Part shown: positions 11,980-32,000 of the stretch, piece after piece
Numbering within the stretch: the first letter of the stretch is position 1
Layout of the letters: each line of letters opens with the position of its first letter
NCBI RefSeq assembly: GCF_001457595.1
Contig: NZ_LN831039.1
Span: forward strand, 1-32,000
DNA from: Mycolicibacterium smegmatis
GTDB lineage: Bacteria > Actinomycetota > Actinomycetes > Mycobacteriales > Mycobacteriaceae
Direction of reading: 5' to 3'
DNA length: 32,000 bases
The notes under the pieces: model-generated
What the model was told of the DNA's origin: nothing
The model's database searches: none
Seen by the model: the letters and a program-made list of their open reading frames with translations, nothing else
Made by a program: the position numbers and the translations under genes

Positions 11980-12000
11980 CAATCAAGAGAATCTCCAAGA

Positions 12001-12019
12001 GTTGGTTAGGTTACCCTCA
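12001..12019. promoter_or_regulatory. Candidate IdeR/DtxR iron box upstream of the SIP-importer operon
   Basis: GTTGGTTAGGTTACCCTCA matches the IdeR consensus TTAGGTTAGGCTAACCTAA at 14 of 19 positions (hand alignment). It contains a TANNNT hexamer (TAGGTT, 12007-12012) and ends 5 nt before the GTG of the first iron gene. Confidence 0.55.
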
Positions 12020-12024
12020 GCTGT

Positions 12025-12825
12025 GTGAGCTTCTCGTATGCGTCCGTCATCGAGACCAAGGCGCTCAACCCCCGGATGGTCCGGATCACCCTTCAGGTCG
12101 AGGACCCCGCTTCCCTCGACGTGCAGCAGGCCGCCGACTCGGCAGTCGCGGTCTTCATGCCCGGCACCGACGAGGGCCGCAACTACTCCGTACGCCGCCA
12201 GCGCGGCGATCTGCTCGACCTCGACGTGGTGCTGCACGCCCGCGGTGTGGGGACCGACTGGGCGGCGCGAACCCGGCCCGGTGACCGCGTCGGCCTCGAC
12301 CACGCACGCTCGTGGTACCGCCCGGACCCGGCCGCGCAGTGGCAGCTGTTGATCACCGACCTGTCCGGGCTGCCGGCCACCGCGCGCATCCTCGAAGAGT
12401 TGTCTCCGGAAGTCCCCGTGACGGTGATCGCCGAGGTCGCCGAAGCGCAGGATCTCGACTACCTGCCGGCGCATCCGCAGGCGCGGTTGGTCACGTCGAT
12501 CGGGACGGGTAACGGCAACGCGCCGAGCGAACTGGCCACGCTGGTGCGTGAGCTGGCCCTGCCGCGGGATCGCGGCTACTGCTGGTTCGCGGGTGAAGCC
12601 GCAGAGTCGCGCGCGGTCAGGAAGTATCTCAGGGGGCTGGGGTACCAGAACGAACAACTCGACATCACGGGTTACTGGAGGTTCGACTCCGAGACCTGGG
12701 ATGCCGCATTCGCTCTGGTGGAATCGGATGTGTTGGCGGTGTACGAGCGTGCACTCGCCGAAGGCAAGGGGGACAAAGTGGCTTTCGAGGAGTTCGACGA
12801 GGCCTGCGAGCGAATCGGTCTGTGA
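12025..12825 (+). CDS. Siderophore-interacting protein (SIP/ViuB-type FAD-binding ferric-siderophore reductase)
   Basis: This is a 266-aa ORF. The N-terminal beta-barrel text is VIETKALNPRMVRITLQV, the FAD motif RNYSVR is present, and the C-terminal NAD(P)-binding part is CWFAGEAAESRAVRKYLR. Confidence 0.88.
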   Translation: MSFSYASVIETKALNPRMVRITLQVEDPASLDVQQAADSAVAVFMPGTDEGRNYSVRRQRGDLLDLDVVLHARGVGTDWAARTRPGDRVGLDHARSWYRPDPAAQWQLLITDLSGLPATARILEELSPEVPVTVIAEVAEAQDLDYLPAHPQARLVTSIGTGNGNAPSELATLVRELALPRDRGYCWFAGEAAESRAVRKYLRGLGYQNEQLDITGYWRFDSETWDAAFALVESDVLAVYERALAEGKGDKVAFEEFDEACERIGL

Positions 12826-12828
12826 TAG

Positions 12829-13860
12829 GTGATCACGCAGGCACCGCTCGCACCGCCGCGCGCCGCGCGTAACCACCGGGCTGTCGGACTGGCCGTCGCG
12901 ACAGTCGTTCTGGTCGCGATGTGCATCGCGAGCCTCGCGATCGGCACGCAGAACGTCTCGTTGTCCACGGTCTGGCAGGCCGTCACCGACTACCGCGACA
13001 TCGGCGACCAGTGGATCGTCCACGACCTGCGGATCCCGCGTACGGTGCTGGGTCTGCTGGTCGGCCTGGCCCTCGGACTCTCGGGCACCCTGATCCAGGC
13101 CGTGGGACGTAACCCGCTCGCCGATTCCGAGATCCTCGGCATCAACTCGGGTGCGGCGCTGTTCGTCGTCGCGGCCATCGCGTTCCTCGGGTTCAGCGGA
13201 ATCTGGACGTACATCGGATTCGCTTTTCTCGGAGCGCTTTTCGCGATGCTCATGGTGTACCTGATCGGCATGACCGGACGGGCCACCGTCACACCGGTCC
13301 GCGTGCTGCTCGCGGGGGTGGCGATCGGTGCCGTGATGGACGGTTTCGGATTCGTCATCAGACTGCAGAATCCGCGGGCGTTCGACAACATGCGCTTCTG
13401 GGATGCCGGCGCGCTCGACGGGAGACCGCTTGAGGTGGCCGGCGCGATCGCACCGTTCATCGCGGTCGGCGCCGTGTTGTGCCTCGTGGTGTCGCGCTCG
13501 CTGAACATCACCGCGCTTGGCGACGATCTTGCGAAGAGCATGGGCAGCAACGTCGTTCGTACCCAGGTGCTCAGCCTGACGGCGGTGACGCTGCTGGCCG
13601 GTGCGGCGACGGCAGGCGCCGGGCCGATCGGCTTCGTCGGCTTGATGGTGCCGCACGCGGTGCGGCGGTTCACCGGCCCGGACTGGCGGTGGGTCCTGGC
13701 GTACGCGACGGTGGTCGCGCCCAGTCTGATGCTGGCCGCCGACATCGTCGGCCGGGTCGTCATCCGGCCGTCGGAACTGCCCGCGGGCATCGTCACTGCT
13801 TTTCTCGGCGCCCCCGTACTCATCTGGCTCATCAGGCGTTCGAAGGCGGACCGCGCATGA
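12829..13860 (+). CDS. FecCD-family iron-siderophore ABC importer permease (FepD-like; fxu cluster)
   Basis: This is a 343-aa polytopic ORF. It carries typical FecCD motifs (LRIPRTVLGLLVGLALGLSGTLIQAV.RNPLADSEILGINSGAAL and GPIGFVGLMVPH). The start lies 4 nt after the SIP stop. Confidence 0.92.
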   Translation: MITQAPLAPPRAARNHRAVGLAVATVVLVAMCIASLAIGTQNVSLSTVWQAVTDYRDIGDQWIVHDLRIPRTVLGLLVGLALGLSGTLIQAVGRNPLADSEILGINSGAALFVVAAIAFLGFSGIWTYIGFAFLGALFAMLMVYLIGMTGRATVTPVRVLLAGVAIGAVMDGFGFVIRLQNPRAFDNMRFWDAGALDGRPLEVAGAIAPFIAVGAVLCLVVSRSLNITALGDDLAKSMGSNVVRTQVLSLTAVTLLAGAATAGAGPIGFVGLMVPHAVRRFTGPDWRWVLAYATVVAPSLMLAADIVGRVVIRPSELPAGIVTAFLGAPVLIWLIRRSKADRA

Positions 13861-14915
13861 CCGTCATCGATTTCGGGAAGCGCCAGTGCGTGGTTCGCGT
13901 CGGCAGCGCGTCGGCGCGCATGTCGTGGCGTGCGGTGATCGCGGTCGTCGCACTGCTGGTGGGTGCCTTCGTGGCCGCGGTTCTGGCGATCGGGATCGGC
14001 AAGTACCCCATCACACCTGTCGACGTGCTGCGTGTGCTGGTCGGCACGAACACCACGTTCGACCGTGTGGTGGTGCTCGAGTGGCGCATGCCGCGCATGC
14101 TCATGGCGCTGCTGATCGGTGCGGCGCTCGGGGTTTCCGGTGCGATCTTCCAGGCGCTGACGCGAAACCCGTTGGGCAGTCCGGACATCATCGGTGTGAA
14201 CGCCGGGGCCTACACCGGAGCGCTCGTCGCGCTGGCGGGGCTGGGGACCGGAGGGCAACACGGCGGGTACTACGCCGTGGCGGGCGGCGCGCTGGTCGGT
14301 GGGTTGATCACCGCCGCTGCGGTGTACGCACTGTCGTACCGCAACGGACTGGCCGGTTACCGCCTCATCGTGGTCGGCATCGGCGTGGGCGCCGTACTGA
14401 GTTCGGTCAACCAGTGGATCGTCATCAAGCTCGATCACCACACCGCGGTCACGGCCTCGGTGTGGCAGCAGGGCACCCTCAACGGCCTCACCTGGTCCCA
14501 GGTCGTCCCGATGACGGTGTGTCTTGCCGTCGTGACGGTCGCACTGCTCGCGATGGGCCCGCAGTTACCCGTTCTGCAGATGGGTGACGACGCGGCAGGT
14601 GGGCTCGGCGTCAACCCGGAACGGGTCCGCCTGTCCTATCTGGTCGCCGGCGTCGCGCTCGTGGCGTTGGCCTGCGCGGCGGCCGGGCCGATCTCCTTCG
14701 TGGCGCTGGCCGCCCCGCAACTGGCACGGCGACTCACCGCGAGTCCCGGCGTCGCACTGGTCCCCGCGGCCGCGATGGGCGCCGTGCTGCTGCTCGCGAG
14801 CGACCTCGTGGCCCAGCATCTGTTCACGGCCAACGAACTACCGGTGGGCGCGGTCACCGTATCGCTGGGCGGGATCTACCTGGTATATCTCCTTGTCACA
14901 CAGGCACGTCGGTGA
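13857..14915 (+). CDS. FecCD-family iron-siderophore ABC importer permease (FepG-like; fxu cluster)
   Basis: The ATG at 13857 overlaps the upstream stop (ATGA) and gives 352 aa. Motifs are WRMPRMLMALLIGAALGVSGAIFQALTRNPLGSPDIIGVNAGA and GPISFVALAAPQ. The upstream part of track ORF 13479..14915 overlaps the previous permease and is Arg-rich. Confidence 0.9.
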   Translation: MTVIDFGKRQCVVRVGSASARMSWRAVIAVVALLVGAFVAAVLAIGIGKYPITPVDVLRVLVGTNTTFDRVVVLEWRMPRMLMALLIGAALGVSGAIFQALTRNPLGSPDIIGVNAGAYTGALVALAGLGTGGQHGGYYAVAGGALVGGLITAAAVYALSYRNGLAGYRLIVVGIGVGAVLSSVNQWIVIKLDHHTAVTASVWQQGTLNGLTWSQVVPMTVCLAVVTVALLAMGPQLPVLQMGDDAAGGLGVNPERVRLSYLVAGVALVALACAAAGPISFVALAAPQLARRLTASPGVALVPAAAMGAVLLLASDLVAQHLFTANELPVGAVTVSLGGIYLVYLLVTQARR

Positions 14916-15754
14916 AAGAACATATGACTCACACGCCAGAGAACGCGGTGCCCGACCGGTTGGGGGCCGTCGACGTCTCGATCGGGTACGACGACCGGAC
15001 CATCATCGACGGTCTGACGGTCCAGGTGCCTGCCGATCGGGTGACCGCGATAGTGGGGCCCAACGCGTGCGGAAAGTCCACACTGTTGCGGGGTTTCGCC
15101 CGGTTGCTCACACCGTCGGCCGGGCGGGTGATCCTCGATGGGCACGACATCGCGACCATGCACACCAAGGACGTGGCGCGCCGACTCGGGTTGCTGCCGC
15201 AGACCTCGATCGCGCCCGAGGGTATCACGGTGGCAGATCTGGTGTCGCGTGGCCGTTTTCCACATCAGAAGGTGTTCCGGCAGTGGTCACGTGACGACGC
15301 GGCCGCGGTCGCCGACGCCATGCGGCACACCGGTGTCACCGAACTGTCGGCACGACTGGTCGACGAACTGTCGGGCGGGCAACGCCAGCGCGTCTGGGTC
15401 GCAATGGTTCTCGCGCAGCAGACGCCCCTGATCCTGCTCGACGAGCCCACCACCTATCTGGACATCGCGCACCAGGTGGAACTGCTCGACCTGTTCGCGA
15501 TGCTCAACCGCGAGCACGGCCGCACCGTGGTGGCGGTGCTGCACGATCTCAACCAGGCCTGCCGCTACGCCGACGAGTTGATCGTCATGAAGGCGGGCCG
15601 CATCGTGGCCCAGGGCGATCCCGACGTCGTGATGTCGGCCGATCTGGTGCGCGACGTCTACGGGCTGGAATGCCAGATCATCGACGACCCGCAGACCGGG
15701 ACACCCCTGATCGTGCCGCGGGCGTCGCGGCACGCGCGGGTGGTCAAACGGTAG
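14912..15754 (+). CDS. Iron-siderophore ABC importer ATP-binding protein (FepC-like; fxu cluster)
   Basis: Walker A is GPNACGKSTLLRG, the signature is [12 protein letters not shown], Walker B is ILLDEPTTYLD and the H-loop is VLHDLN. The GTG at 14912 overlaps the permease stop (GTGA). An in-frame ATG at 14924 is an alternative start. Confidence 0.93.
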   Translation: MKEHMTHTPENAVPDRLGAVDVSIGYDDRTIIDGLTVQVPADRVTAIVGPNACGKSTLLRGFARLLTPSAGRVILDGHDIATMHTKDVARRLGLLPQTSIAPEGITVADLVSRGRFPHQKVFRQWSRDDAAAVADAMRHTGVTELSARLVDELSGGQRQRVWVAMVLAQQTPLILLDEPTTYLDIAHQVELLDLFAMLNREHGRTVVAVLHDLNQACRYADELIVMKAGRIVAQGDPDVVMSADLVRDVYGLECQIIDDPQTGTPLIVPRASRHARVVKR

Positions 15755-16703
15755 CGAATTCCGGTGTGGCGGTCAGGTATCCGCCACCGTGCCCGAAGTA
15801 GTCGAGTGCCGAGTGGTCGATGCCGTCGTCGGTGCGCACCACGTCGAGAACCAGACCCGGTGACCTGCCGCGGAACGCGTCGGCGCCCGCGACGATCACC
15901 ATGCCGCCGTTCTCTTCGATGAACACGCGTCCTGGCGTGCCACCGTAGGTGCATCTCGAGACGTGGGCAGAGATCAGGCGTAGCCGTTCGCCGCGAAAAT
16001 ACGTGTACGCATTGGGATAGGGGTCCGAGAGCGCCCGAATGAACCGCTCGATGTCGGCCGCGGGCCAGGACCAGTCCACCAAACTGTCGCGAGCGGACCG
16101 CTTGTGGAAAAACGTTCGTTGTGAGAGATCCTGCGGAACCGGCGTCGCGGTGCCGTTCTCGATGGCGTCGAGAGCGTCCTCGAGCACATCCGGAATCAGG
16201 TCGAGCGTGTCGTACACCAGGCTGGTGCCGGTGCTGGTCGGGGTGATCTCGACGGACCGCTGCAGCAGGATGTCGCCGGTGTCGAGTTCGTCGTCCATGA
16301 AATGCGCCGTGAGCCCGGTCTGTCCGGCACCGCTGATCAACGACCAGATCACCGGCGAGAAACCGGTGAACTTCGGCAGCAGCGAATCATGCAAATTGAC
16401 GGTGCCGTACTTGGGAATCGAGAACAGTTCGCGCGGCAGGCGGGTACGCCAATTGTTCGCGACGCCGACATCCGGTGCGAGTTCCCTGACACGTTGGACG
16501 AGTTCTGGGGTGGGCCGCTTGGCCAGGAGCACCTCGATTCCCGCGCCGCGCGCCAGGTCCTCCACCGAATCCGCCCAAATCGATTCGTACGCATGGTCAC
16601 TCGTCGGATGAGTCACCACCAGGCACACTTCGTGCCGCGATTTCAACAACGCCTGCAGGGTCCGATGGCCCCACGTCTGGTAGCCGAACATGACCACGCG
16701 CAC
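15744..16703 (-). CDS. fxbA: Formyltransferase of exochelin biosynthesis (Fmt/PurN-like N-terminal domain plus Fmt-type C-terminal domain)
   Basis: The N-terminus VRVVMFGYQTWGH and the catalytic motif NLHDSLLPKFTGFSPV (HxSLLP) are present. The start is placed at the GTG at 16703 (319 aa) because this matches formyltransferase N-termini. GTG 16712, GTG 16697 and ATG 16691 are also possible. The longer track ORF (to 16967) would run through the promoter and iron box and into the divergent gene. Confidence 0.85.
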   Translation of the reverse strand: MRVVMFGYQTWGHRTLQALLKSRHEVCLVVTHPTSDHAYESIWADSVEDLARGAGIEVLLAKRPTPELVQRVRELAPDVGVANNWRTRLPRELFSIPKYGTVNLHDSLLPKFTGFSPVIWSLISGAGQTGLTAHFMDDELDTGDILLQRSVEITPTSTGTSLVYDTLDLIPDVLEDALDAIENGTATPVPQDLSQRTFFHKRSARDSLVDWSWPAADIERFIRALSDPYPNAYTYFRGERLRLISAHVSRCTYGGTPGRVFIEENGGMVIVAGADAFRGRSPGLVLDVVRTDDGIDHSALDYFGHGGGYLTATPEFATV

Positions 16704-16754
16704 AGGAAACACCCAGCTTTCTGGCAGGTTCGGGGCGGTTTCAACGAGCCCCAC

Positions 16755-16773
16755 ATTGGTAAGCCTTACCTTT
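16755..16773. promoter_or_regulatory. Candidate IdeR iron box (palindromic core GGTAAG-C-CTTACC) in the fxbA / mbtH-like divergent control region
   Basis: ATTGGTAAGCCTTACCTTT matches 12-13 of 19 positions of TTAGGTTAGGCTAACCTAA, with symmetric substitutions in both half-sites. A TANNNT hexamer (TAGCAT, 16776-16781) follows on the + strand. Confidence 0.5.
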
Positions 16774-16898
16774 GATAGCATGCCGGTTGGCTTACGAGAC
16801 GTCCAGTGCTCCGCACGGTAGTCGACAGCCAGGGGGAAGACCACCACGGCCCGCGTTGCGGCATTACGGTGGCCGAAAATCTCGGGGGAAGGAAACGT

Positions 16899-17135
16899 TT
16901 GTCCACCAATCCTTTTGACGACACCGACGGCCGCTTCGTGGTCCTGGTCAACGACGAGGGCCAACATTCGCTGTGGCCCGTGTTCGCCGGCGTTCCCGCA
17001 GGCTGGACGGTCGCGTTCGGCGGCGCCGGCGGCGCTGATCGTGGCAGTGCCCTGCGCTTTGTCGACGAGAACTGGAACGATCTGCGTCCGCGGTCGCTGC
17101 GCGAAGCCACCGACAATACGGCCACATTGGCGTGA
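16899..17135 (+). CDS. MbtH-like protein (NRPS adenylation-domain chaperone)
   Basis: A TTG at 16899 follows GGGGGAAGGAAA and gives 78 aa. The text is [37 protein letters not shown]....[10 protein letters not shown], with the three invariant Trp positions of the family. The GTG at 16806 would add 31 non-family residues. Confidence 0.85.
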
Positions 17136-18865
17136 GCATGGCCGACACCACGCGAACCGACCTGTCCTGGACCGGGGTTCGCGTACTTCGGCGCACCGTG
17201 AGCCGAAATCTCAAGTGGCTCACGTCCGGTACGACACTCATCGCCCTGCACCAGCTGTGCGAGGTGTCGGTACCGGTTCTGATCGGCATCATCGTCGACC
17301 GCGCGGTCGCGACCGGCAGCGTCGAAGCGATCATTCGCTGGATCGCCGTCCTCGCCGCACTTTTCGTGGTGTTGACCGTGGTCTACCGATTCGGCGCCCG
17401 GCTGCTGATGTTCGCCATCGCGCGGGAATCGCACCTCTTGCGGGTGGAGTCGAGCGCCAAGATCCTCGACCCGCTGGGTATCGAGACCGACTACAAAGTC
17501 GGTGAACTACTGTCGATCTCGTCGGACGACGCCGACGAGGTCTCCTACCTGCTGGACTACGTGCCGCGGATCGTAGGCGCCGTGGTGGGCACCGTGGTGT
17601 GCGGCGCGGTGTTGCTGAGCATCCATCTACCGCTGGGGCTGATGGTCCTGATCGGTGTGCCAGTCGTGGTGTTCGGCCTGCAATTGACGGCTCCGATGAT
17701 CGCGCGCCGGGTCGAGGACCAACAGGCCGAGATCGGCCGCGCGACGGCCCTGGCCACCGACCTCATCAGCGGACAGCGGCCGTTGCAGGGAATCGGCGCG
17801 CAGGCCAACGCGGCCGCGCGCTACCGTGTCGCGAGCCGTCGCGCGCTGACCGCGACGTTGCGTGCCGCGCGCATCCAGAGCATCCACTCGGGCGCTGCGG
17901 CGGCGGCCGGGGCACTCGCCGCGATGGCGGTGGCCGTGGTCGCGGCCTACTTCGCGATCCGCGGTTCGATGACGGTGGGCCAGTTGATCACCGTGATCGG
18001 CCTCGCCCAGTTCCTCATCGAACCGTTCTCGCTGCTGGCGGTCGTGCCGAGTTGGGTCGCCGAGGCCCGGGCGTCGGCCAACCGCGTCGCTCGCGTCCTG
18101 AGCGCCCCGACCCGCCACTCCCCCGTCTTCGCGGCGGACCCCCGCGACGCCGCGGCCCGCCTGTCGGTCCGCAACGCAACACACGCGGGTCTGAAAAACC
18201 TGTCGTTCGACGTCGAGCCAGGCGAATTCGTCGCGGTACTCACGAGCGACGTCCGCGATGCCGGCGCACTCATCGATCTGCTCTCCGGATATCAGCGAGC
18301 CGAGGACAAAGGCACGGTGCTGGTCGGTGGCCGGCGCCTCGACCAGATCCCGCTGAAAGAGCGCCGCGAACACCTGCTCGTCGAACACCACCTCAGCTCG
18401 TTGTTCAGCGGGACGCTGGAAACCAATCTGAATGTCACAGGAACCGATCCGCGGCGCGGACGGGTCTCCGTCGACGACGCACTACAGGCGTCGTGCGCCG
18501 TCGACGTCGTCGACCTGCACCCCGACGGTCTCGCCCATGCCGTCGTGGAGCGCGGTGCGAGCCTGTCCGGAGGACAACGCCAACGCTGGACCCTGGCCCG
18601 TGCGCTGCTGGCCGATCCGGCCGTCCTGGTGCTGCACGATCCGACCACCGCGATCGACACCGTCACCGAGCAGGTCATCGCCGACGGCATACGCCGGCTG
18701 CGCACGCGCGCGGGACGCACAACGGTGGTCCTCACCAGCAGTCCGGCCTTGCTCGCCGCGGCCGACCGGGTGCTGCTCGTCATCGACGGGCGTCTGGACA
18801 GCGAAGGCACACACCGCGATCTGGTCGACGCCCACTCCGACTACCGGGATCTGGTGACCCGATGA
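17132..18865 (+). CDS. exiT: ABC exporter half-transporter (TMD-NBD) with a degenerate nucleotide-binding domain; exochelin export (exiT region)
   Basis: This is a 577-aa ORF with an N-terminal six-helix type exporter TMD. The C-terminal NBD has an intact LSGGQRQR signature but no Walker A lysine ([21 protein letters not shown]). Walker B is VLVLHDPT (no catalytic Glu) and there is no H-loop His. The GTG overlaps the mbtH-like stop; an ATG at 17138 is an alternative start. Confidence 0.88.
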
Positions 18866-20631
18866 TCTCCGACGAACCCGTCACGCCTCCGGTTCTGCCG
18901 GTGGCGACCGCCCGACGCTCGGGTGCCTGGCTGATCGCCGATCTGCGTGGTCGGCGCACTGCGCTGGCCGCGGTCGTGACCGTGGGGCTCGCGGCGGCAG
19001 CGGCCTCGGTGGTGCCCATCTATCTGCTCGGCATGCTCGTCGACCGCGTCGAACACGGCGACGGCACACGCGGTCTCGTGGCACTCGGCACGGTGATCGC
19101 GCTGGCTGCCGTCGCGGGTGGCCTGGGCACCGGATTGTCGACCTACCTGACCTCCCGTCTCGGTGAGCAGATGCTCGCCGATCTGCGTGAGCGAGTGCTC
19201 GAGCGCGCACTCAACCTGCCGGCCACGCTCATCGAGGAGAGCGGACGCGGCGACCTGCTGTCTCGGGTCGGTCCGGATGTGGCCGTGGTGGCCCGCACGG
19301 TCGCGCAGGTGTTACCGGTGATCCTCAACGGTTTCTTCCTCGGCGTCGTGACGCTGGTCGGGATGACAACCCTCGACTGGCGCCTGGGTCTCGCGGGCGC
19401 GCTGGCCATCCCGGCCTACATCGCCGGACTGCACTGGTATCTGCCACGATCGGCCCCGATGTACGCCGACGAACGGATCGCGATCGCCAACCGCGCGCAG
19501 GTCACGGTCGAGTCGATCCAGGGTGCGCGGACCATCGACGCCTACGAGATCCACGACCGGCACCTCGCCGACATCGACCGCGCCTCAGGCCGGGCGCGCG
19601 ACATCTCGATCGCGGTGTTCACGTTCTTCACACGTCTGGTGGGCCGCGTCAACCGTGCCGAATTCATCGGCCTGGCCGCCACTTTGGTCGTCGGATTTCT
19701 GCTGGTGCGCTCCGGTGAGACCACCGTCGGCCAGGTCACCGCGGCCGCGCTGATGTTCCACCGGTTGTTCAACCCCGTCGGCGAACTGATGTACAACTTC
19801 GACGAGATCCAGTCGGCATCGGCAAGCCTGGCGCGCCTGGTCGGGGTCATCGACCTGGACGCCCCCGGCCCGGACGCACGGCGAACTGCGCCGGCGAGGC
19901 CCCACGGTGCCGACATCTCCGTCGAGAACGTGTCGTTCGGCTACGGCACGGGACCTGAGGTGCTGCACGGTGTCTCGCTGCACGTACCGGCCGGCACCAG
20001 GTGTGCTCTGGTCGGCACCACAGGCGCGGGCAAGACGACACTCGCCGCGATCGTCGCGGGCCTGCTCACCCCGACGTCGGGACATGCGCGCATCGGTGGC
20101 GTCCCCGTAACCGAGATCGCCGACCTGCGCCGCTGGGTTGCCACGATCACGCAGGAAGTCCACGTCTTCTCCGGGCCGCTCATCGACGACCTGCGGCTCG
20201 TGGCACCGCAGGCCTCCGTCGACGACGTGTGGACCGCGCTGGAGACGGTGGGCGCGAGCACCTGGGTGCGGGCGCTCGACGACGGCCTGGACACGGTCGT
20301 CGGCGAGCACGGCCACGAGTTGACCGCCGCGCAGGCACAACACGTCGCGATGGCCCGCCTGGTGCTCGCCGACCCCGAGGTGGTCGTTCTGGACGAGGCG
20401 ACCGCCGAGGCCGGCAGTGCACACGCCGCCGAACTGGAGGACGCCGCCTCGGCCGCCACCGCGGGCCGGACCACGCTGATCGTCGCACACCGGCTCACGC
20501 AGGCCGCGCAAGCCGATCAGGTCGCCGTCATGGCCGACGGCCGCATCGTCGAAAACGGCACGCACGCAGAGTTGATCGCCCTCGGCGGTCGCTACGCGCG
20601 GCTGTGGCAGGCCTGGATCAGGCACAACTAG
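18862..20631 (+). CDS. exiT: ABC exporter half-transporter (TMD-NBD) with a canonical NBD; partner of the preceding gene (exiT region)
   Basis: The ATG at 18862 overlaps the upstream stop (ATGA) and gives 589 aa. Walker A is GTTGAGKTT, the Q-loop is ITQE, Walker B is VVVLDEAT and the H-loop is IVAHRL. The signature is degenerate (LTAAQAQ). The first 421 codons of track ORF 17599..20631 are an Arg-rich read-through overlapping the previous gene. Confidence 0.9.
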   Translation: MISDEPVTPPVLPVATARRSGAWLIADLRGRRTALAAVVTVGLAAAAASVVPIYLLGMLVDRVEHGDGTRGLVALGTVIALAAVAGGLGTGLSTYLTSRLGEQMLADLRERVLERALNLPATLIEESGRGDLLSRVGPDVAVVARTVAQVLPVILNGFFLGVVTLVGMTTLDWRLGLAGALAIPAYIAGLHWYLPRSAPMYADERIAIANRAQVTVESIQGARTIDAYEIHDRHLADIDRASGRARDISIAVFTFFTRLVGRVNRAEFIGLAATLVVGFLLVRSGETTVGQVTAAALMFHRLFNPVGELMYNFDEIQSASASLARLVGVIDLDAPGPDARRTAPARPHGADISVENVSFGYGTGPEVLHGVSLHVPAGTRCALVGTTGAGKTTLAAIVAGLLTPTSGHARIGGVPVTEIADLRRWVATITQEVHVFSGPLIDDLRLVAPQASVDDVWTALETVGASTWVRALDDGLDTVVGEHGHELTAAQAQHVAMARLVLADPEVVVLDEATAEAGSAHAAELEDAASAATAGRTTLIVAHRLTQAAQADQVAVMADGRIVENGTHAELIALGGRYARLWQAWIRHN

Positions 20632-20664: not shown

Positions 20665-23600
20665 GTGACCGCGGATTCGCTGGACATCGCAGAGCTTCTG
20701 GAGCTGTGGAACAACCACTCCACGCCGGAGCACACATCGACCGTCCCGACGCTGTTCGCCGCCCAGTGCGCGCTGACGCCGGACGAGGTGGCCGTGGTCG
20801 ACGGCGAACGGCGGCTCACCTACCGCCACCTCGAGACCCACGTCGCGCAACTCGCGCACGCCGTGCGCGTCGCGGCCGGGGAGGGCCCCGAACCGATCGT
20901 GGCGATCGGTGTCCCGCGGTCGGCCGAGATGGTCGTGTGCGTGCTCGCCGCGATGATGGCCGGTGTCGCGTTCGTACCCCTCGATCCCTCGTGGCCCGCG
21001 CACCGACGCCGCCAGGTCCTCGCCGACTCCGGCGCGGTCGCGACGTTCATCACCCGCGAAGACGAATCCGATTGGGGCGTGCCGGGATTGCGGGTCGACC
21101 TCGGCGCCTGGCAGTTCACGGCCGAGTCGCCCGTGTTGCCGCAGGCCGACGTGCATCCGGCCCAACTGGCGTACGTGATCTTCACCTCGGGCTCGACGGG
21201 CAAGCCCAAGGGCGCGATGATCCGCCACGACGCGATCGCCGAGCGGTTGCAGTGGCAGCGCGATCACATCCTGCACTTCGGCAAGCACGACCACACCGAC
21301 GCGTCACTGTTCAAGGCGCCCTTGTCCTTCGACATTTCGGTCAACGAGATCCTGTTGCCGCTCGTCAGTGGCGGACGCGTGGTGGTCGCGGTCCCCGACG
21401 GCGAGAAGGATCCCGAGTACCTGCTCGAGCTGATCCGCACCGAACAGGTGACGTTCGTGTACCTGGTGTCGTCCATGCTCGACACGTTGCTCGAGCTCGA
21501 CCGGCTCGCGACCGCCGACGGCGCGCCGAGCTCACTGGCGTCGCTGCGCCATGTGTGGTGCGGCGGTGAGGTTCTCACACCCGGTCTGTTCGCGCGGTTC
21601 CGCAAACAGCTGACCACGACGCTTTACCACGGCTACGGCCCGGCCGAGGCCACCATCGGCGTCTCGCACGTGATCTACCGCGACACCGCAGAACGCATCG
21701 CGACCTCGATCGGCCGCCCCAATCCGCACACGCAGCTCTACGTGCTCGACGAGTACCTGCAGCCCGTGCCACCCGGCGTCGGTGGTGAACTGTACGCAGC
21801 CGGATTCCTGCTGGGCCGTGGCTACGTCAACGCACCGTCACTGACCGCGTCCCGCTTCGTCGCGAACCCGTTCGACGGCAACGGATCCCGCATGTACCGC
21901 ACAGGCGATCTGGCGCGGTGGACCGAGGACGGCAGCCTGGAATTCCTGGGTCGCGCCGACAACCAGGTCAAGATCGGTGGCAGGCGCGTCGAACTCGAGG
22001 AGATCGAGTCGCAACTGGCCGACCACCCCGCCGTGCGGCACGCGGTCGTGGACGTGCACCGCCAGGGCGGTGCGGATGTGCTGGTGGGCTACCTGGTGGC
22101 CGCCGACGGCGTGCGCAACGACGCGGCGTGGCACGCGGAGGTCGCCGACTGGGCACGCACCCGCCTGCCGGAGTACATGGTGCCCAAGGCCTTCGTGGCC
22201 CTCGAGCGGGTTCCTCTGACCGCCAACGGCAAAACCGACCGACGGGCGCTTCCCGCGCCAGATCTCGAGCGCAGCGGCACCGTCAAGCCGCCCCGCACAC
22301 CGCGCGAGACCGTGCTGTGCCAGGTCTTCGCCGACGCGCTCGACATCGACGCGGTCGGCGTCGACGAGGACTTCTTCGCCCTCGGTGGCGACAGCATCGT
22401 CGCGATCCGCGTCGTGAGCCGGCTGCGCGCCGCGGGCTACACCCTGCGACCGCGCGACATGTTCGCCCACCGCACGGTCGAGGCACTGGCGCCCCTGCTC
22501 GGCGACTCCGATGTCCGGGACACCGGTCCGGCCGTCGACCCCACCGGCGCTGCCACACCCACGCCCATCCTGCGGTGGCTCGACGAGGTCGGCACCGCGG
22601 GATCCGTGCTGAACGGATTCCACCAGGGCATGTCGCTCGTGACACCGGCCGATGCCGACGAGAACACACTGCGCGCGGCGATCGCGGCCACCGTGCGGCG
22701 CCACCACGTTCTGTGGGCTCCGCCCGGACGCACCGCGTCGGACATCGACATCCCCGGTACGCCGCCCGAGACCCGGCTGCTGATCGCCGATGCTTCCGAC
22801 GGAATCCCTGCGCAGGCCGAAAAGGTTGCACGGCAACTGGTGTCCCTGCTCGACACCGCCAGGATCGCATTCGGCTGGATCCGGCGCCCGGCCGCGCCCG
22901 GCCGTCTCGTGGTGATCGCCGACCACACCGTGATCGACGGCGTCTCGCTGCGGATTCTCGCCGAGGACATCGCCACCGCCTACGGGCTGATCGCAGAAGG
23001 CCGGGCCGTCGAACTGCCCACGCCGCACACCTCGTGGCGGGCCTGGGCACAGCGCCTCGCCGATACCGCGGCCGCCGGTGGATTCGACGCCGATCTCGAG
23101 CACTGGCAGCAGGTGTGCGCGACAACCGAGACGCCGTGGGGCGACCGGGCATTGGACCCCGCGATCGATACCGTCGCCACCGAATCCCGGCTGACCGTCG
23201 AGCTGCCGTCCGCGGTCACCGACGCGATCCTCACCACCGTGCCCGACCGGATCCACGGCCACGTCAACGACGCCCTGGTCGCGGCGCTGTACCTGGCGCT
23301 GCGCCGGTGGCTGCACACGCGCGGCGTGGGTGCCGACACCCTGCTGGTCGAGATGGAAGGCCACGGCCGCGAGGGCCACCTCGTCGACTCGGACACGGCA
23401 GGCCTCGACCTGTCGAACACCGTCGGCTGGTTCACCACGCTGTACCCGGTCGCCCTGCGCGACGCCGAATTCGACTGGCAGGCAGCCGTCTCCGGCGGGC
23501 CTCAGCTGGGTGCGGCGGTGCGCTCGGTCAAGGATCAGCTTCGGTCGGTGCCGTCGCACGGGTTCAGCTACGGTGCACTGCGCTACCTGCGTGACGGCAC

Positions 23601-23925
23601 CAGCGGTCTCGAGGCCGCGCCGCAGGTGCTGTTCAACTACCTGGGCCGCTTCGGCACCGCCGACCGGCCATGGGCTCTCGCGAACGACACCACCGCGGTG
23701 CTCGAGGACCGCGATCCGGGCATGCCGCTGCCGCGTCTGCTCGAGGTCAACGCGGAGGCCGTCACCACCGCTGACGGCTCCGTGCTCCGCGCGACGTTCA
23801 GTTGGCCCGCCCACGCCGTCGCGGAGGTCGACGTGCGCACGCTGGCCGGCATGTGGACGGACCTGCTCACCGCGATCGCCTCGAGCGACGACGTGCGAGG
23901 GCACAGTGCATCGGACTTCGACCGC
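20665..23925 (+). other. NRPS module 1 (approximate bounds): A (20740-22250), T (22291-22500), E (22540-23925); no N-terminal C domain
   Basis: Motifs are listed under the NRPS CDS. The E domain carries [23 protein letters not shown] and FNYLGRF. Confidence 0.75.
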
Positions 23926-26900
23926 GTCAGCGTCACGGCGGACGACGTCGCCGAACTCGAACGCCGCTACCCCGGTCTCACCGACCTCCTGCCGCTCACG
24001 CCGACGCAGCAGGGCATCTATTTCCACTCGACCTTCAGCCGCGACCGCGACCCCTACGTGGTGCAGCAGATCGTCGACATCACCGGCCCGCTGGACACCG
24101 AACGCTTCCAGCGCGCAACCGAATCCGTGGCCGCGCGCCACCGTGCGCTTGGGGCCGTGTTCACGACGCTGTCCGACGGCACCCCGGTCGCGGTGCACGC
24201 CGCGACGGTCGCACCCGACTTCGACGTCCTCGACGCCCGCCACGCCGCCGATCCGTCGACTGTGGTCGCGCAACGTGCCCGGTGGGAGCGTGAGCGCCGC
24301 TTCGACCTGGCCGCCGCGCCGCTGACCCGTTACACGCTGGTCCGCCGCCGCGACGACCTGCACACCATGATCCAGACCGTGCACCACATCGTCGCCGACG
24401 GGTGGTCGGTGCCCATCGTGCTGGACGATCTGCTCACGGCCTACGCAGGTGACGATTTCGACGGTCCCGCACCGGAATTCGCACGCTTTGTCGACTGGCT
24501 CGAGCAGCGCGACACCGACGCCGACCGTGCGGCCTGGGCGCCTGCGCTCGAGGACATCACCGAACCCACGCGCCTGGCCGCCGCTGACGGCGCCCGTGGC
24601 CGTACAACCGGCTCCGGTTTCGGCACCCGCACCGTGACCCTGCAGTCCCGCAGCGCGGTCGCCGACGCCGCCAACGGTGCTGCGGTCACCGTCGGCACCC
24701 TGCTGCACACCGCATGGGGGCTCGCACTGGGGCGGCTCACCGGACGCGACGACGTCGTGTTCGGCACTGTGGTCTCGGGTCGTGGCGCAGATGTGCACGG
24801 CATCGAGTCGATGGTCGGCCTGCTGGTCAACACCGTCCCGGTGCGCGTGGCCTGGAGCGCCGACGACACCGGCGCCGATGTCGCGGGGCGCCTCGCTGCC
24901 GTGGAATCCACGCTGCTCGAACACCATCACCTGCCGCTGACCGAGGCGCACCGCCTCGCGGGGGTCGGCGAACTGTTCGACACGCTCGTCGTGATCGAGA
25001 ACCTCGGCGCGACAACGCATACGCGCGGCGACCTGACATTGGGTGACATCGGCGTGATCGAGGCTCCGCATTACCCGCTGACGCTCATGATCAGCGTGCG
25101 CGACACCATCACGGTGACCGTCACCAACGACCGCGAGCACGTCTCCGACGTGCTGGCCGACACCGCGGTCGCCGCGTTCACCGAGGTGTTGACGGCGCTC
25201 ACAGCCGATCCCGGGGTGTCCCCCGGCGACATCGCGCTGCCCGCACCGCAGGCGACCGCCCCACCGACGCAGGCGCCGCAGACCGTCACAGATCTGATCG
25301 CGGCCGCGATCGCGGAGCACCGCGACGATATCGCCCTGGTGGTCGGCGAGACCGAGTGGACCTACGGCCAACTCGGCGCCCGCGCAGGTGAACTCGCCGC
25401 AGCGCTGGCCGAGGCGGGTGTGCGCCGCGGCGACATCGTGGCGCTCGCGACCGCTCGTTCGGCGGACCTGGTGGCCGCGATCTGGGCGATCATCGCCGCG
25501 GGCGCGGCGTATCTCCCGGTCGACCTCGCCTATCCGCGGACCCGTATCGAGTACATGCTGCGCCATGCGCGCCCCACCGCGGTGATCGCCGACGGTGTGG
25601 GAGCGCACGTGGTGTCCGGGGCCCTGCCTGCGGACACGATCGTCGTCTCGACCACGGCAACACACGCCGCCGTGCCCTTCACGCCGGTGCCGGTGGACGG
25701 CGCCGACGCGGTTTCGGTGCTCTACACCTCGGGTTCAACGGGTGAACCCAAGGCCGTGGTCGGCACACACGCGGCGCTGGCCAACCGCCTCGCGTGGGCG
25801 GTCGAGGCCTGGCCCGCCGCGACGCGCATCGCGAAGAGCTCGCTGTCGTTCATCGACGGCACCACCGAACTGCTCGCCGGTCTCGCGGCAGGCGCGCGCA
25901 CGGTGCTGGCAGGCGATGAGACCGCTCGCGACGGCAGGCGCCTCGCGCAACTCGTGGCCGCGCACGGCGTCGAACAGCTGCTCGCCGTACCGTCACTGGC
26001 CGCGGTGCTCGCCGACGAACGCACCGAAGATGTTGCCGAGCTGAACCGTTGGATCGTCAGCGGTGAGGCCCTGGAGCCTCGGCATCTGCACGCACTGCGG
26101 ACGGCTTGCCCCACCGCCGAGATCGTGAACTCATACGGATCCTCCGAGGTGGCCGGGGATGTGCTCGCCGGTGTGCAGGATGACGCGGGCATCACGCTCG
26201 GCGCGGCCGTGCCGGGGGCAGGCATCCGGATCCTCGACAGCCGGCTGCGGCAGCTTCCCGCCGGGGTGATCGGCGAGATCTACGTCACGGGTGGGCAATT
26301 GGCGCGCGGTTACCTGGGCCGGCCCGGGCAGACCGCGACACGGTTCGTCGCGGCGCCCGGCGGTGAGCGGATGTACCGCACGGGTGACCTCGGCGCGTTG
26401 CTGCCCGACGGTCGCGTCGTGTTCGCGGGCCGCGCCGACGATCAGCTCAAGATCAACGGCCACCGTGTCGAACCCGGCGAGATCGAGAGCGTGCTGGCAC
26501 GGCAACCCGGTGTCCGGGAAGCCGCCGTGATCGGCACGGGAACGCAACTCGCCGCGTTCGTGGTGCTGGAGTCCGACGCCCCCGGCGCCGGTGATCTGCT
26601 CACCGCGGTGAGCGCCGAACTGCCCGGGCACCTGGTCCCGTCGAGCCTGCGACCGGTGGACGCGATCCCGCTGCTGCCCAGTGGCAAACGGGACAACACC
26701 GCGCTGCGATCGCTTCTGGTCCCCGGTGAAAGCACGGACACAGCGCCCACCAACGACGTCCAACGGGCCGTGCTCGATGTGATGACCGGTGTACTGGCCC
26801 GCGACACGCTCGGCGCCGACGACGACTTCTTCGCCGTCGGCGGTGACAGCATCTCGGCGATCCGGGTCACCAGCCGGCTGGCCCGCGCCGGGTACCACAT

Positions 26901-29900
26901 CGCGACCGAAGACGTCTTCCGTGGCCGTACCGCCGCGGGCGTGGCGGCCCTGGTCGACACCGTCGAACCCCTCGCGCACGACGCGGCGATCGAACCGTTC
27001 GGCACCGTGCGGCTGTCGCCGCAGACCATCGATCGGATCCGGGAAAGCGGTCCGGTCGAGGACATCTGGGCCATGTCGCCGCTGCAGCTCGGCGTGTACT
27101 ACCAGAGCACGCTCGCCGACGCGGGCCCGACGTACATCGCGCAGAACGTCTTCGAGTTCGACCGCCGCATCGACGTCGACGCCATGCGGCGAGCATTCAC
27201 CGCGCTGTTGCGCCGTCACCCGCAACTGCGGGCCGGGTTCCGCACCGTCGAGCACGCCGAACCCGAACCGGCCCCCGACGCCACACCCGTCGTGCAGGTC
27301 GTGGTGACCGACCCTCCGTCGGACCTCACGGTCGTCGACCTCACCGACCAGGACGACCCGGCCGCCGCGCAGCACATCGTCGACACCGACCGCACCGCGC
27401 CCTTCGACGTCGCGACGCCCCCGCTGCTACGGCTCACCGTGATCCGGCTACCGGGCGGACGTGACCGGATGCTGTTCACCTATCACTTCCTGCTGTTCGA
27501 CGGCTGGTCGCGCGAACTGGTGCTGCGAGACCTGTTCGCGCTCTACGACTCCGACGCGCAGCACGGCGCGATCGCACCGCACGGCGACCTGGTGGTGCGC
27601 CACCTGCAGTGGCTCGCGACCGACGGCGACCCGCAGGCCTCGGGCGCCACAGACGCATGGCGTGACCTGCTCGCGGGTCTGACCGAGCCGACGCTGGCGA
27701 GCGGCGTGTCACCCGATCACCCCGACGCGCGGCCCGGCACCGAACCCGGCAGGATCGTCGTGAGGGTGCCCGAGGACGTCACCACGCAACTGCACACGTG
27801 CGCCACCGCGCACGGCGCGACGCTCAACTCCGTGGTGACCGCGGCCGTCGCGCTGGTGACCGGCTATCACGCCGGCACCACCGACGTCGTGATCGGGACC
27901 ACCGTCGCCGGGCGCCCCGGCCACCTCGTCGGGATCGACGAGACCATCGGCCTGTTCCTCAACACCGTGCCGGTGCGGGTCGACATGTCCCCCACCCGTT
28001 CGGTCGCGGCCGCGATGGCCTCCATCGGTGAACAACGTGTGGCGATGATGCGGCACGACCACCTGGGCCTGGGCCAGATCCAGCGCGCCGCAGGTGATTC
28101 CGGCAGCGCGCTGTTCGACTCGCTGCTGGTGCTGCAGAACTTCCTCGACGACGACACTTTCACCGACCTCGAATCCCGCCACGGCATCATCGACGTCAAC
28201 TACCACGACACCACGCACTTCCCGCTCACCTGGGTGCTCACCCCGGGCCGCGAACTCGCGATCAAGCTCGAGCACCGCGTGGTCGACGACGCCAGGGCCA
28301 CCGAGATGGTCGAACAGCTCGTCACGGTGCTGCGGACCATCGCCGCGGAACCCGATACCGCCGTGGGCGCGGTCGACCTGATCGGCGCGGACCGGCGTGC
28401 ACAACTGGAGCGCAGGTGGTCGTCGACCGAACGACCGCTCGAGCCGGTCACGATCGCCGAACTCCTCGCGCGGCGTGCCGAACAGAATCCCGACGACGTC
28501 GCGCTGGTGTTCGGCGCGCAGTCGGTGACCTACCGCGAATTCGACGACCGCGTCTCGCAATTCGCGCGCCATCTGCGCGCACGAGGCGCGGCGCCCGAGA
28601 CGTTCGTCGCGCTCGCACTGCCTCGATCGATCGACATGGTGGTCGCGCTGTTCGCGGTGCTGCGCGCAGGTGCGGCCTATCTGCCGCTCGAGCTGGACCT
28701 CCCCATCGACCGCCTCCGCACGATCATCGACGACGCCGAACCCGTGCTGCTCGTCACGACGACCGACCGCACGGAACTGATCGGGCACGCACGAGCCCGT
28801 GGAGCCGATGTCATCGCGCTCGACGACGCGGAAACCGCTGCCACACTCGCCGATACGCCCGCGTACGCGCTGACCGCAGGCGAACTCGGGGCTTTCGCGT
28901 CCGGCAGCACGCGCCTGAACCACCCGGCGTATCTGATCTACACGTCCGGTTCCACGGGACGCCCGAAGGGTGTGCTCACCGGGTACGCGGGCCTGACCAA
29001 CATGTACTTCAACCACCGCGAGGCGATCTTCGCACCCACCGTGGCCCGGGCCGGTTCGGCAGAACAGTTGCGCATCGCCCACACCGTGTCGTTCTCGTTC
29101 GACATGTCGTGGGAAGAGTTGTTCTGGCTGGTCGAAGGACACCAGGTGCATGTGTGCGACGAGGAGTTGCGCCGGGACGCACCGGCACTGGTCGCGTACT
29201 GCCACCGGCACCGCATCGACGTCATCAACGTCACGCCGACGTATGCCCACCACCTGTTCGACGCCGGTCTCCTCGACGACGGCGCCCACACCCCGCCGCT
29301 CGTACTGCTCGGCGGCGAAGCCGTCGGTGACGGCGTGTGGTCGGCGCTGCGCGATCACCCCGACTCGGCCGGATACAACCTGTACGGACCCACCGAGTAC
29401 ACCATCAACGCCCTGGGCGGCGGCACCGACGACAGCGAAACTCCGACTGTCGGACAACCGATCTGGAACACCCGCGGCTACATCCTCGACGCGGCATTGC
29501 GACCCGTGCCCGACGGCGCGGTCGGCGAACTCTACATCGCAGGCACCGGCCTGGCGCGCGGATACCACCGCCGTGCGGGTCTGACCGCGGCCACCATGGT
29601 CGCCGACCCGTATGTGCCCGGTGGGCGCATGTACCGCACCGGGGACCTCGTCCGCCGTCGCCCCGGCAGCGCCGAACTCCTCGACTACCTCGGCCGCGTC
29701 GACGACCAGGTGAAGATCCGCGGCTACCGCGTCGAGCTCGGCGAGATCGAATCCGTCCTCACGACGGCCGACGGCGTCGCACGCTGCGCGGTCGTGGCGC
29801 GCGCGACCGGGGCCAATCCGCCCGTGAAAACCCTCGCGGCCTACGTCATCCCGGACCGGCGGCCTGCCGAGGACGCCGCGTTCATCACGGGACTCCGCGA

Positions 29901-32000
29901 CCACCTGGCGCGCGTGCTGCCGGGTTACATGGTGCCGACGCGCTACGGCATCGTCGACTCGTTGCCGCTGACCATCAACGGCAAACTCGACGTCGCGGCA
30001 CTGCCCGAACCCGTCGCCGCGACCAGTGGCACCGGCCGGACACCGCGCACCGACCGCGAGGCCACCCTGCTCGAGATCGTGGCCTCGGTGCTCGGCATCG
30101 ACGGCATCGGCGTGGACGACGACTTCTTCACCCTCGGCGGTGACAGCATCTCATCGATCTCGGTGTGCGGACGCGCCCGCAAGGCCGGGCTCAACATCAC
30201 GCCGCGAGACGTGTTCCGGCGCCGCACCATTGCCGCGCTCGCGGCAAGTGCCGACACCACGCAGACCCCGGAGTCCGGTCCCGACACCGGGACCGGGGCC
30301 ATCACCGCGACCCCCATGCTCGCCGAGACCGCACAGGCGAACACGCCGCTGACCAACTTCTACCAGGCCATGGTGCTGGCCACGCCGGCCGGGATCACCG
30401 CGCACGAGGTGCAACGCGTGCTGCAGACCGTGGTCGACGCCCACGCGATGCTGCGTGCGCGCCTGGTGACCACCGCGACGGGCTGGACCCTGACCGTTCC
30501 CGATCAGACCGCGGCGATCGGGCTCACCGTCCGGTCGGGTGCGCTGACCAGCGACTGTGTCGAGGCCGAGAAAGCCGCGGCGGCAGCCGAACTCGACCCT
30601 CGGGCGGGCAACATGGTACGCGCGGTGTGGTTCGACGCCCCGGAGGCGAGCGGGCAACTGCTGCTCGTGATCCACCACCTGGTGATCGACGGCGTGTCGT
30701 GGCGCATCCTGTCCGAGGATCTTTCGCGCGCGTGGAACGACCTGGCCGCAGGACGCGACGTGGCGGCCGACGCCGTGCCGACGTCGTTTCACACGTGGGC
30801 GAACGCACTGGCACAGCGCACATTCGACGACGAGCGCGAGTACTGGGCCGATGTGCTGGCCACGCCGGATCCGGATCTGGGCAGCCGCCCGCCGGATCCG
30901 GCGATCGACACCGCGGACACCGTGCGCAGTCACGAGGTCACCCTGCCGTCCGATGTCACCGCGGCCCTGCTGACCTCGGTGCCCGCCGCGATGCACGGCG
31001 GTGTCAACGACGTGCTGCTCACCGGACTGGCGGTGGCGCTGGGACAGTGGCGTGCCGACCGGGGCCACTCACAGAACACCGCCACCGTGATCAGCCTGGA
31101 GCGCCACGGCCGCGAATCCGACCTGGTGGCAGCCGATCTGGACCTTTCACGAACCGTCGGCTGGTTCACCTCCATCTATCCGGTGCGCATCGACCCGGGC
31201 CCCCTCGAATGGGACACAGTGCGGTCGGCAGGCGCGGAACTCGCCGCAGCGGCCAAGGCCGTCAAAGAACAACTGCGCGCGGTACCCAACCGCGGGCTCG
31301 GCTACGGCGTCCTGCGTCACCTCCACGGCGCGCTGGACGGCACCCCGCCGCAGATCCTGTTCAACTACCTCGGCCGCTTCACCGGCGGCAGCGGCAACGA
31401 CTGGCGACCGGTCGCGGGAATCGGCGCGCTCACCGAGGGCGTGGATCCGAGCAACCCGGCCATGCCACTCGAGATCAACGCCCTGGCCGAGGAGCGGCCC
31501 GACGGCACGGTGCTCAGCATGACGCTGGCCTGGCCCGGTGGGCTGCTCGACGCCGACGACGTCGCCGAACTCGGCTCGATGTGGGCCGATGTGCTTGTCG
31601 CGCTGACCCGTTGTGATGCCCTGCGGGGCCACACCCCGTCGGACTTCGGCCTGGTGACCGTCAGCCAGGACGACATCGACGGCTGGGATCGACTCGGCGA
31701 GGTCGAGGAGGTGCTGCCCCTGCTGCCGCTGCAGGAGGGTATGTACTTCCACAGCATGTTCGGGGATCCTGCGACCGACACCTACCGCGTGCAGCAGATC
31801 GCCCAACTGTCCGGCCCGGTGGATCCCGAGGTGCTGCGTACCAGTCTCACCGTCGTGATGCGCCGCCACCAGGCGTTGCGTGCGAGCTTTAACGAACTCA
31901 CCGACGGCCGGGTGGCGCAGGTGATCTGGTCCGACGTCCCGGTTCAGCTCACCGTGGTCGACACGGATGATCTGGAAAGCATTGCCGCAGAGGAGCTCGC
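20665..32000 (+). CDS. fxbB: Non-ribosomal peptide synthetase, 3' end beyond the window (exochelin synthetase, fxbB/fxbC region). Domains seen: A-T-E, C-A-T, C-A-T-E, C...
   Basis: This frame is not in the ORF track. It is the same frame as the preceding gene. The first start after the TAG at 20629-20631 is the GTG at 20665, 9 nt after GGAGGA. Hand translation shows:
- A3 motifs at about 21170 ([16 protein letters not shown]), 25715 ([12 protein letters not shown]) and 28930 ([13 protein letters not shown])
- A8 motifs [40 protein letters not shown] and [20 protein letters not shown]
- carrier GGDS serines at 22393, 26848 and 30145
- HHxxxDG-type motifs at 22921, 24385, 27481 and 30670
- epimerase EGHGRE/ERHGRE at 23356 and 31100
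All of these are in one frame. No frame-1 plus-strand ORF is listed after 20631, so no in-frame stop occurs before base 32000. Confidence 0.93.
23968..26955 (+). other. NRPS module 2 (approximate bounds): C (23968-25230), A (25282-26710), T (26749-26955); no E domain
   Basis: The C domain has [14 protein letters not shown] and HHIVADGWS. The A domain has unusual A4/A5 regions ([17 protein letters not shown]). The T domain has [14 protein letters not shown]. Confidence 0.75.
27040..31650 (+). other. NRPS module 3 (approximate bounds): C (27040-28375), A (28440-29995), T (30043-30250), E (30295-31650)
   Basis: The C domain has [14 protein letters not shown] and [10 protein letters not shown]. 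The A domain has [28 protein letters not shown] and LTINGKLD. The T domain has [14 protein letters not shown]. The E domain has [25 protein letters not shown] and FNYLGRF. Confidence 0.75.
31690..32000 (+). other. Start of NRPS module 4 condensation domain (truncated by the window end)
   Basis: [14 protein letters not shown]...YRVQQI...[10 protein letters not shown] follows an E domain. Its N-terminal motif resembles that of the module 2 C domain, which also follows an E domain. Confidence 0.7.

Follow-up and report, generated by a model that had tools for sequence, protein, structure and literature searches.

The window analysed here is a stretch of 32,000 nucleotides at the start of the 6,983,267-bp contig NZ_LN831039.1 of Mycolicibacterium smegmatis, which begins at the chromosomal origin and ends inside an open frame for a nonribosomal peptide synthetase (NRPS). 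We read this frame, with a probability of about 0.92, as modules 1-3 and the beginning of module 4 of the synthetase that makes the siderophore exochelin MS. Pfam found 3 AMP-binding, 3 PP-binding and 5 Condensation-family stretches in the frame 20665-32000, and searches with pieces of it returned each in-window domain with an E value of 1e-9 to 1e-92. In residues, the order is A(31-523)-T(550-609)-E(628-1099)/C(1104-1539)-A-T/C(2129-2596)-A-T-E(3211-3675)/C(3678-...), where A, T, E and C stand for adenylation, carrier, epimerisation and condensation domains. The same order had been described in a first-pass annotation of the DNA, and both the whole frame and the pieces bear it out.

20665..32000, + strand: 5' half of the fused FxbB-FxbC NRPS, open frame from GTG 20665 to the window end, 3778 aa
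20755..22233, + strand: A1, predicted formyl-hydroxyornithine type (Pfam; code DINYWGGIGK)
22312..22491, + strand: T1 with GGDSI (Pfam PP-binding 1.4e-14)
22546..23961, + strand: E1 with DHTVIDGVS, EGHGRE and FNYLG (Pfam, motifs; groups with E3 in the tree)
23974..25281, + strand: C2, DCL type, HHIVADGWS (Pfam 3.1e-60; in the clade of post-E domains)
25306..26688, + strand: A2, beta-amino acid type, predicted beta-alanine (Pfam; code IDTLISSGDK, Asp shifted by one position)
26767..26955, + strand: T2 (Pfam PP-binding)
27049..28452, + strand: C3, condensation domain lacking the second His (Phe codon 27487-27489; clade of 26, support 99)
28468..29985, + strand: A3, predicted N5-hydroxyornithine (Pfam; code DMENLGLINK)
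30064..30246, + strand: T3 (Pfam PP-binding 2e-13)
30295..31689, + strand: E3 with HHLVIDGVS (Pfam 2.2e-40)
31696..32000, + strand: start of C4, DCL type, running past the window end (Pfam, motifs)

With the downstream DNA added, the full gene spans genome positions 20665-43236 and encodes 7523 aa, for which Pfam on eight pieces gave the layout A-T-E/C-A-T/C-A-T-E/C-A-T-E/C-A-T/C-A-T-TE, TE being a thioesterase. The first-pass annotation had expected modules 4-5 and a release domain in this direction; modules 4 and 5 and the thioesterase are indeed present, but three further modules, not two, precede the latter. E domains are confined to modules 1, 3 and 4, and all three bear the E-type marks xHxxxDGVS, E(G/R)HGRE and FNYLG. 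In the active site of E1 (DHTVIDG, window 22921-22941, aa 753-759) the first His is replaced by Asp and the second is kept; an orthologue representative (P0002) has HH intact at this place.

Adenylation codes and colinearity with exochelin MS

The ten specificity positions of each A domain were read by hand from motif anchors and per-type references, in GrsA numbering.

A1: DINYWGGIGK
A2: IDTLISSGDK
A3: DMENLGLINK
A4: DFWNIGMVHK
A5: DMENLGLINK
A6: DTWDTGLVDK

The A4 code is the canonical threonine code and serves as an internal control on the positions read. A2 reads SFIDGTTE and NSYGSSE, so that it carries the sequence marks of a beta-amino-acid A domain, namely the displacement by one position of the alpha-amine-binding Asp (GrsA 235) and the A5 motif YGSSE; its assignment to beta-alanine is supported by the aspartate decarboxylase encoded in the cluster. 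The A1 code and the A3/A5 code are presumably those by which the coelichelin synthetase selects formyl-hydroxyornithine and hydroxyornithine, respectively. The first A domain of FxbC has been cited as activating hydroxyornithine, with Glu239 (PMC4786211). The codes of A1-A3 thus fit the predicted substrates formyl-hydroxyornithine, a beta-amino acid and hydroxyornithine. None of the six codes is present in the PARAS supplement, and 1AMU ranked only 21st among the solved relatives.

Exochelin MS consists of D-N5-formyl-N5-hydroxyornithine, beta-alanine, D-N5-hydroxyornithine, D-allo-threonine and L-N5-hydroxyornithine. With the E domains limited to modules 1, 3 and 4, codes and E positions together let modules 1-5 be read as D-formyl-hydroxyornithine, beta-alanine, D-hydroxyornithine, D-(allo)threonine and L-hydroxyornithine, leaving the sixth module as surplus. 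The D, achiral, D pattern proposed for modules 1-3 from the window itself, and its colinearity with exochelin MS, therefore agree with the E positions, the A codes and the identity of the locus.

The exochelin locus next to oriC

The 5' part of the window contains the chromosomal origin with dnaA, dnaN, a 6-phosphogluconate-dehydrogenase-like gene (gnd), recF, the DciA gene, gyrB, gyrA and a DUF3566 gene, 3' of which tRNA-Ile and tRNA-Ala stand ahead of the siderophore genes. Past the tRNAs follow a siderophore-interacting (SIP) reductase, two FecCD permeases, an ATPase, a divergent formyltransferase, an MbtH-like protein, two ABC exporters and the NRPS; Pfam thus bears out the neighbours that had been named for the synthetase (fxbA-type formyltransferase, MbtH-like protein, exporter pair and FecCD importer).

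12025..12825, + strand: siderophore-interacting (FAD) reductase, Msmeg0011 equivalent, 3' of tRNA-Ile/tRNA-Ala (Pfam SIP 1.8e-30, FAD_binding_9)
12829..13860, + strand: FecCD permease fxuC / Msmeg0012 (Pfam FecCD 8.7e-89)
13857..14915, + strand: second FecCD permease fxuB / Msmeg0013 (Pfam FecCD 3.6e-79; ATG 13857 overlaps the preceding stop)
14912..15754, + strand: ABC importer ATPase fxuA / Msmeg0014 (Pfam ABC_tran 9.3e-29)
15744..16967, - strand: FxbA formyltransferase, longest open reading frame (Pfam Formyl_trans_N 2.3e-28, Formyl_trans_C)
16899..17135, + strand: MbtH-like protein, frame 16806-17135 (Pfam MbtH 6.8e-22; TTG 16899 behind GGAAGGAAA)
17132..18865, + strand: ABC exporter half 1, exiT region (Pfam ABC_membrane 3.5e-28, ABC_tran)
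18862..20631, + strand: ABC exporter half 2 (Pfam ABC_membrane 1.4e-32, ABC_tran 4.9e-23; ATG 18862 overlaps the preceding stop)

The longest FxbA frame has alternative starts, and the true one probably lies inside it, near 16703.

The window is the known fxu-fxbA-mbtH-exiT-fxbBC exochelin locus of M. smegmatis, because gene order, genome position and primer matches all agree with the published locus of strain mc2155. The published order runs Msmeg0007, tRNA-Ile (0008), tRNA-Ala (0010), 0011, fxuC (0012), fxuB, fxuA, fxbA (0015), mbtH (0016), exiT (0017) and on to 0019 (PMC2170428), and the order in the window is identical to it. Our comparison with mc2155 at the sequence level consists of the four published RT-PCR primers for Msmeg0012 and Msmeg0015 (PMC2170428), three of which match exactly inside the corresponding genes: both Msmeg0012 primers (13222-13240 and 13258-13276) and the Msmeg0015 reverse primer (16581-16601). 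The Msmeg0015 forward primer aligns at window positions 16638-16656 (- strand), at a distance of 40 bp from the reverse primer, with one base substituted and one deleted, which reflects either a strain difference from mc2155 or a misprint in the published table. Both fxbA and its locus have been tied to exochelin in the literature (PMC2170428), so that the likeness extends from position, order and primers to the assigned product. The published naming distinguishes FxbB and FxbC, whereas here there is one fused frame of 7523 aa, as in modern genome annotations, where FxbB and FxbC are joined into one open reading frame (PMC5550956).

Downstream of the NRPS lie a periplasmic binding protein gene (- strand), an aspartate 1-decarboxylase gene (PanD-type), an ornithine N5-monooxygenase gene, cwsA, a DUF881 gene and pknB; 14 related loci preserve the succession TE, binding protein, decarboxylase, monooxygenase. 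The decarboxylase gene (genome 44511-44966, + strand) sits between the binding-protein and monooxygenase genes; a PF02261 search of this genome returned no other match, for which reason the enzyme may serve both pantothenate and exochelin synthesis.

Work of 1998 by Yu and colleagues and by Zhu and colleagues is said to have described the FxbB/FxbC synthetases and the fxu-fxbA-exiT locus of mc2155. Both the locus, characterised since 1998, and the colinearity of its synthetase with exochelin MS are already known, and their re-identification adds nothing new. The original descriptions of FxbB/FxbC presumably listed five modules, in contrast to the six found here; the masses reportedly given for FxbB and FxbC, 257 and 497 kDa, compared with 806 kDa computed for the fused protein, leave the choice between five and six modules ambiguous.

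The sixth module

Module 6 (genome 39385-43233) reads C(HHIAIDEWS)-A(DTWDTGLVDK)-T-TE and is intact, with all core motifs kept; exochelin MS, as a pentapeptide (PMC2170428), does not explain it. Between M. smegmatis and 15 orthologues, C6, A6, T6 and TE are 65-75% identical, which equals modules 4 and 5. When species genomes were searched with module 6 as the query, full-length matches of 56-74% identity appeared in 34 Mycolicibacterium/Mycobacterium loci, and three more matches end at a contig edge. As far as their DNA reaches, the related loci keep the order E-C(HH)-A-T-E-C(HF)-A-T-C(HHxxxDE)-A-T, the exception being L035, in which the NRPS frame is interrupted immediately 5' of module 6, and all those with an uncut NRPS frame end in TE.

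We tentatively consider, at somewhat less than an even chance, that module 6 is active and that the released product is exochelin MS extended by one residue at its C terminus, a hexapeptide, the pentapeptide arising by later trimming or being one of several congeners. The preserved core motifs of C6, A6, T6 and TE and their conservation at the level of modules 4-5 speak for this, as does the code DTWDTGLVDK, which is invariant in about 37 loci and recurs in the M. neoaurum-type synthetase described below. In five loci (L015, L020, L025, L030 and L033, at about 7000-13800 in each), moreover, the terminal C-A-T module with this code is duplicated in tandem before TE, and their products are predicted to be one residue longer. 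No five-module relative was seen among the related loci, which were themselves found with module 6 as the query. Against this reading stand the structure of 1995 and subsequent potentiometric studies, which reportedly counted three amines and one carboxylate, as in a pentapeptide; in addition, no peptidase gene was seen in the cluster.

Alternatively, with roughly one chance in three, module 6 is skipped or acts as a relay, the pentapeptidyl chain passing from T5 to T6 and on to TE without condensation so that the pentapeptide is released directly. This would accord with the five residues of the published product (PMC2170428) and with the active site of C6, HHIAIDE rather than HHxxxDG. HHxxxDE-type C domains, however, also occur inside other multi-module synthetases of our sample, between modules that must be linked, and the Gly-to-Glu change in C6 is therefore no sign of inactivity. 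It is also hard to see why a module with an unused A domain should have an invariant A6 code, keep its adenylation motifs intact at about 30% sequence divergence and be duplicated as a whole in tandem.

If module 6 is active, which we regard as possible and short of probable, there would be a six-module exochelin line (seven in some) in M. smegmatis and at least 35 other Mycolicibacterium species, in which the last module adds a residue and the textbook pentapeptide is a trimmed or partial product. The extra residue would probably be basic and possibly L-ornithine. In M. neoaurum ATCC 25795 (L039:1142-16633) and in L073, we observed a synthetase of the layout C-A(beta-alanine type)-T-C-T-C(SCHVLLMDGWS)-A(hydroxyornithine code, embedded methyltransferase)-T-C-A(DTWDTGLVDK)-T-C-A(DAQEGGLVDK), which combines the A6 code with a beta-alanine module and an extra C-T pair. 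This is a probable exochelin MN synthetase. Exochelin MN contains two beta-alanines, N-methyl-hydroxyornithine, ornithine and cyclic hydroxyornithine, and the C-T pair lacking an A domain suggests that the beta-alanine domain is used twice. Because the layout fits exochelin MN, and Asp 278 and 331 fit a basic substrate, DTWDTGLVDK may by analogy denote L-ornithine. Protein-library relatives end with other codes (DILQAGMVDK, DGDDTGLVDK); a comparison with Rhodococcus synthetases gave nothing useful on the A6 substrate. A module 6 search of library proteins of up to 5000 aa returned no FxbC-named entry, and full-text literature searches on the specificity codes and on any sixth exochelin synthetase module gave nothing specific.

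Condensation domains before the hydroxyornithine modules

The eight C and E domains of the whole synthetase were aligned. The three N-terminal C-domain motifs quoted in the first-pass annotation are present as written, and the C domains fall into three types. C2 and C4 are 40% identical and share HHxxxDGWS and the N-terminal LPLxPxQxGxYFHS. C6 starts in the manner of LCL domains with SPAQRRM (the SxAQxR motif) and has HHIAIDEWS. C3 and C5, which are 44% identical, read Y-H-F-LL(F/L)-DGWS, the second His of HHxxxDG being Phe. The best solved relative of C3 is the DCL-type C domain that follows an E domain in PvdL (PDB 9up2 and 9lcp; E 1e-45, whole-domain alignment), and the HMMER alignment places the C3 Phe opposite the second His of that domain, which retains HHxxxDA.

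The type of C3 and C5 is not set by donor chirality, since C5 directly follows E4 and C3 follows T2; what they share is an acceptor module with the code DMENLGLINK. The related loci show the same association: wherever a C domain precedes a DMENLGLIN- A domain, its second His is missing, the site reading HF, HV, HL or, in two Rhodococcus loci, EF. In a wider sample of 150 representative proteins, drawn by a library-wide search with C3 as the query and labelled for context by regular expressions, the second His is absent in 24 of the 27 C domains before a DMEN-coded A domain, compared with 11 of 487 before other codes. The M. neoaurum synthetase likewise has a His-less C domain before the hydroxyornithine module that carries the methyltransferase.

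A quick FastTree tree of 168 domains with SH-like support placed all 23 His-less domains that precede a DMEN code, including C3 and C5, together in a single 26-member clade (support 99), whose members all stand before a DMEN-type A domain or have no A domain in their record. This clade is nested in a DCL superclade of 99 domains that also holds all 47 post-E HH domains. C2 and C4 belong to the clade of those 47, as expected of the DCL type and of the post-E likeness noticed earlier, and C6 falls in an LCL clade in which 45 of the 48 members are post-T. C3 had been contrasted in the first-pass annotation with the post-E domains as a post-T domain; the same type recurs as C5 right after E4, however, and tracks the hydroxyornithine acceptor. 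That C3 might be an ordinary LCL domain after a carrier domain, as its place after T2 and its N-terminal motif unlike that of C2 and C4 would imply, is very improbable, contradicted as it is by the position of C5 after E4, by a tree in which C3 and C5 lie within the DCL superclade and well away from the LCL clade of C6, by a best solved relative that follows an E domain, and by the absence from C3 of the SxAQxR motif of the true LCL domain C6, which, unlike C3, also groups with the post-T HH domains. By the hand-read codes and the tree, the synthetase shows neither of the two features that had been named as speaking against exochelin MS, A codes incompatible with its substrates or an LCL domain directly after an E domain.

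We propose that C3 and C5 are His-less hydroxyornithine-acceptor C domains that acylate the N5-hydroxylamine. The structure of Sharman and colleagues (1995) reportedly has two peptide and two N5-acyl hydroxamate bonds, beta-alanine and allo-threonine being attached to N5(OH) of the next ornithines with the alpha-amines free, and the other two junctions being peptide bonds. Two peptide and two hydroxamate junctions would thus map onto two His-containing and two His-less C domains, the hydroxamate reading fitting both bonds. A hydroxylamine, with its low pKa and strong nucleophilicity, may not need the second His of the C domain.

The coelichelin synthetase CchH of Streptomyces coelicolor (Lautru and colleagues, 2005) is said to have an A-T-E start for formyl-hydroxyornithine and to acylate hydroxyornithine on N5. 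Its threonine, hydroxyornithine and formyl-hydroxyornithine codes are presumably the same as here (DFWN.GMVHK, DMENLGLINK and DINYWGGIGK). Unlike the exochelin synthetase, it reportedly builds a tetrapeptide with three modules and has neither a beta-alanine module nor a TE. In the qinichelin synthetase, C domain 5 of QchJ was assigned the isopeptide (hydroxamate) bond from Ser-4 to N5-hydroxyornithine-5 (bioRxiv 10.1101/163170), the chemistry that we propose for C3 and C5; the paper gives no sequence signature, and the domains are likened by description. Beyond this preprint, a full-text literature search for a hydroxamate-forming C subtype gave nothing specific. A second set of C domains, in P0044, P0029 and P0071, has Gln at the second His (SYHQMLVDGWS), and most of those with a readable downstream A code stand before codes like DVE-LGVINK or DVE-IGVCTK; they may be another hydroxylamine-acceptor group.

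Taken together, the domains suggest the following assembly. Ornithine N5-monooxygenase, FxbA and aspartate decarboxylase of the cluster would supply the precursors. Module 1 would load N5-formyl-N5-hydroxyornithine and then epimerise it, and C2 would link the alpha-carbonyl of this residue with the amine of the beta-alanine carried by module 2. C3, without the catalytic second His, would attach the carbonyl of beta-alanine to the N5-hydroxylamine in the side chain of the module 3 hydroxyornithine, forming a backbone hydroxamate, and E3 would epimerise this hydroxyornithine. An ordinary peptide bond to threonine on module 4, which has an E domain, would be made by C4, and a second backbone hydroxamate, to L-hydroxyornithine of module 5, by C5. 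Module 6, with its LCL-type C domain, DTWDTGLVDK A domain, T and TE, would come last and release the chain. In this scheme the sequence shows which domains are present, how they are ordered and typed, what their codes are and which locus they belong to, and from these we infer the substrates, hydroxamate formation by C3 and C5 and the task of module 6.

Several points weigh against the assignment of the stretch to exochelin MS. The structure of exochelin MS and the coelichelin reference codes enter as background, and the substrates are predicted from codes read by hand in GrsA numbering. The C-domain tree was built by FastTree alone, on a sample drawn by a search with C3 itself. Finally, six apparently functional modules stand against a published pentapeptide (PMC2170428).

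The conserved sixth module implies that the relation of a widely used model siderophore to its synthetase is not fully understood. The junctions of exochelin MS, two peptide and two hydroxamate in the reported structure, map one-to-one onto the C-domain types and provide a chemical anchor for the His-less clade. If the proposed role of C3 and C5 is true, exochelin MS would be a chemically defined case of His-less C domains building backbone hydroxamates.

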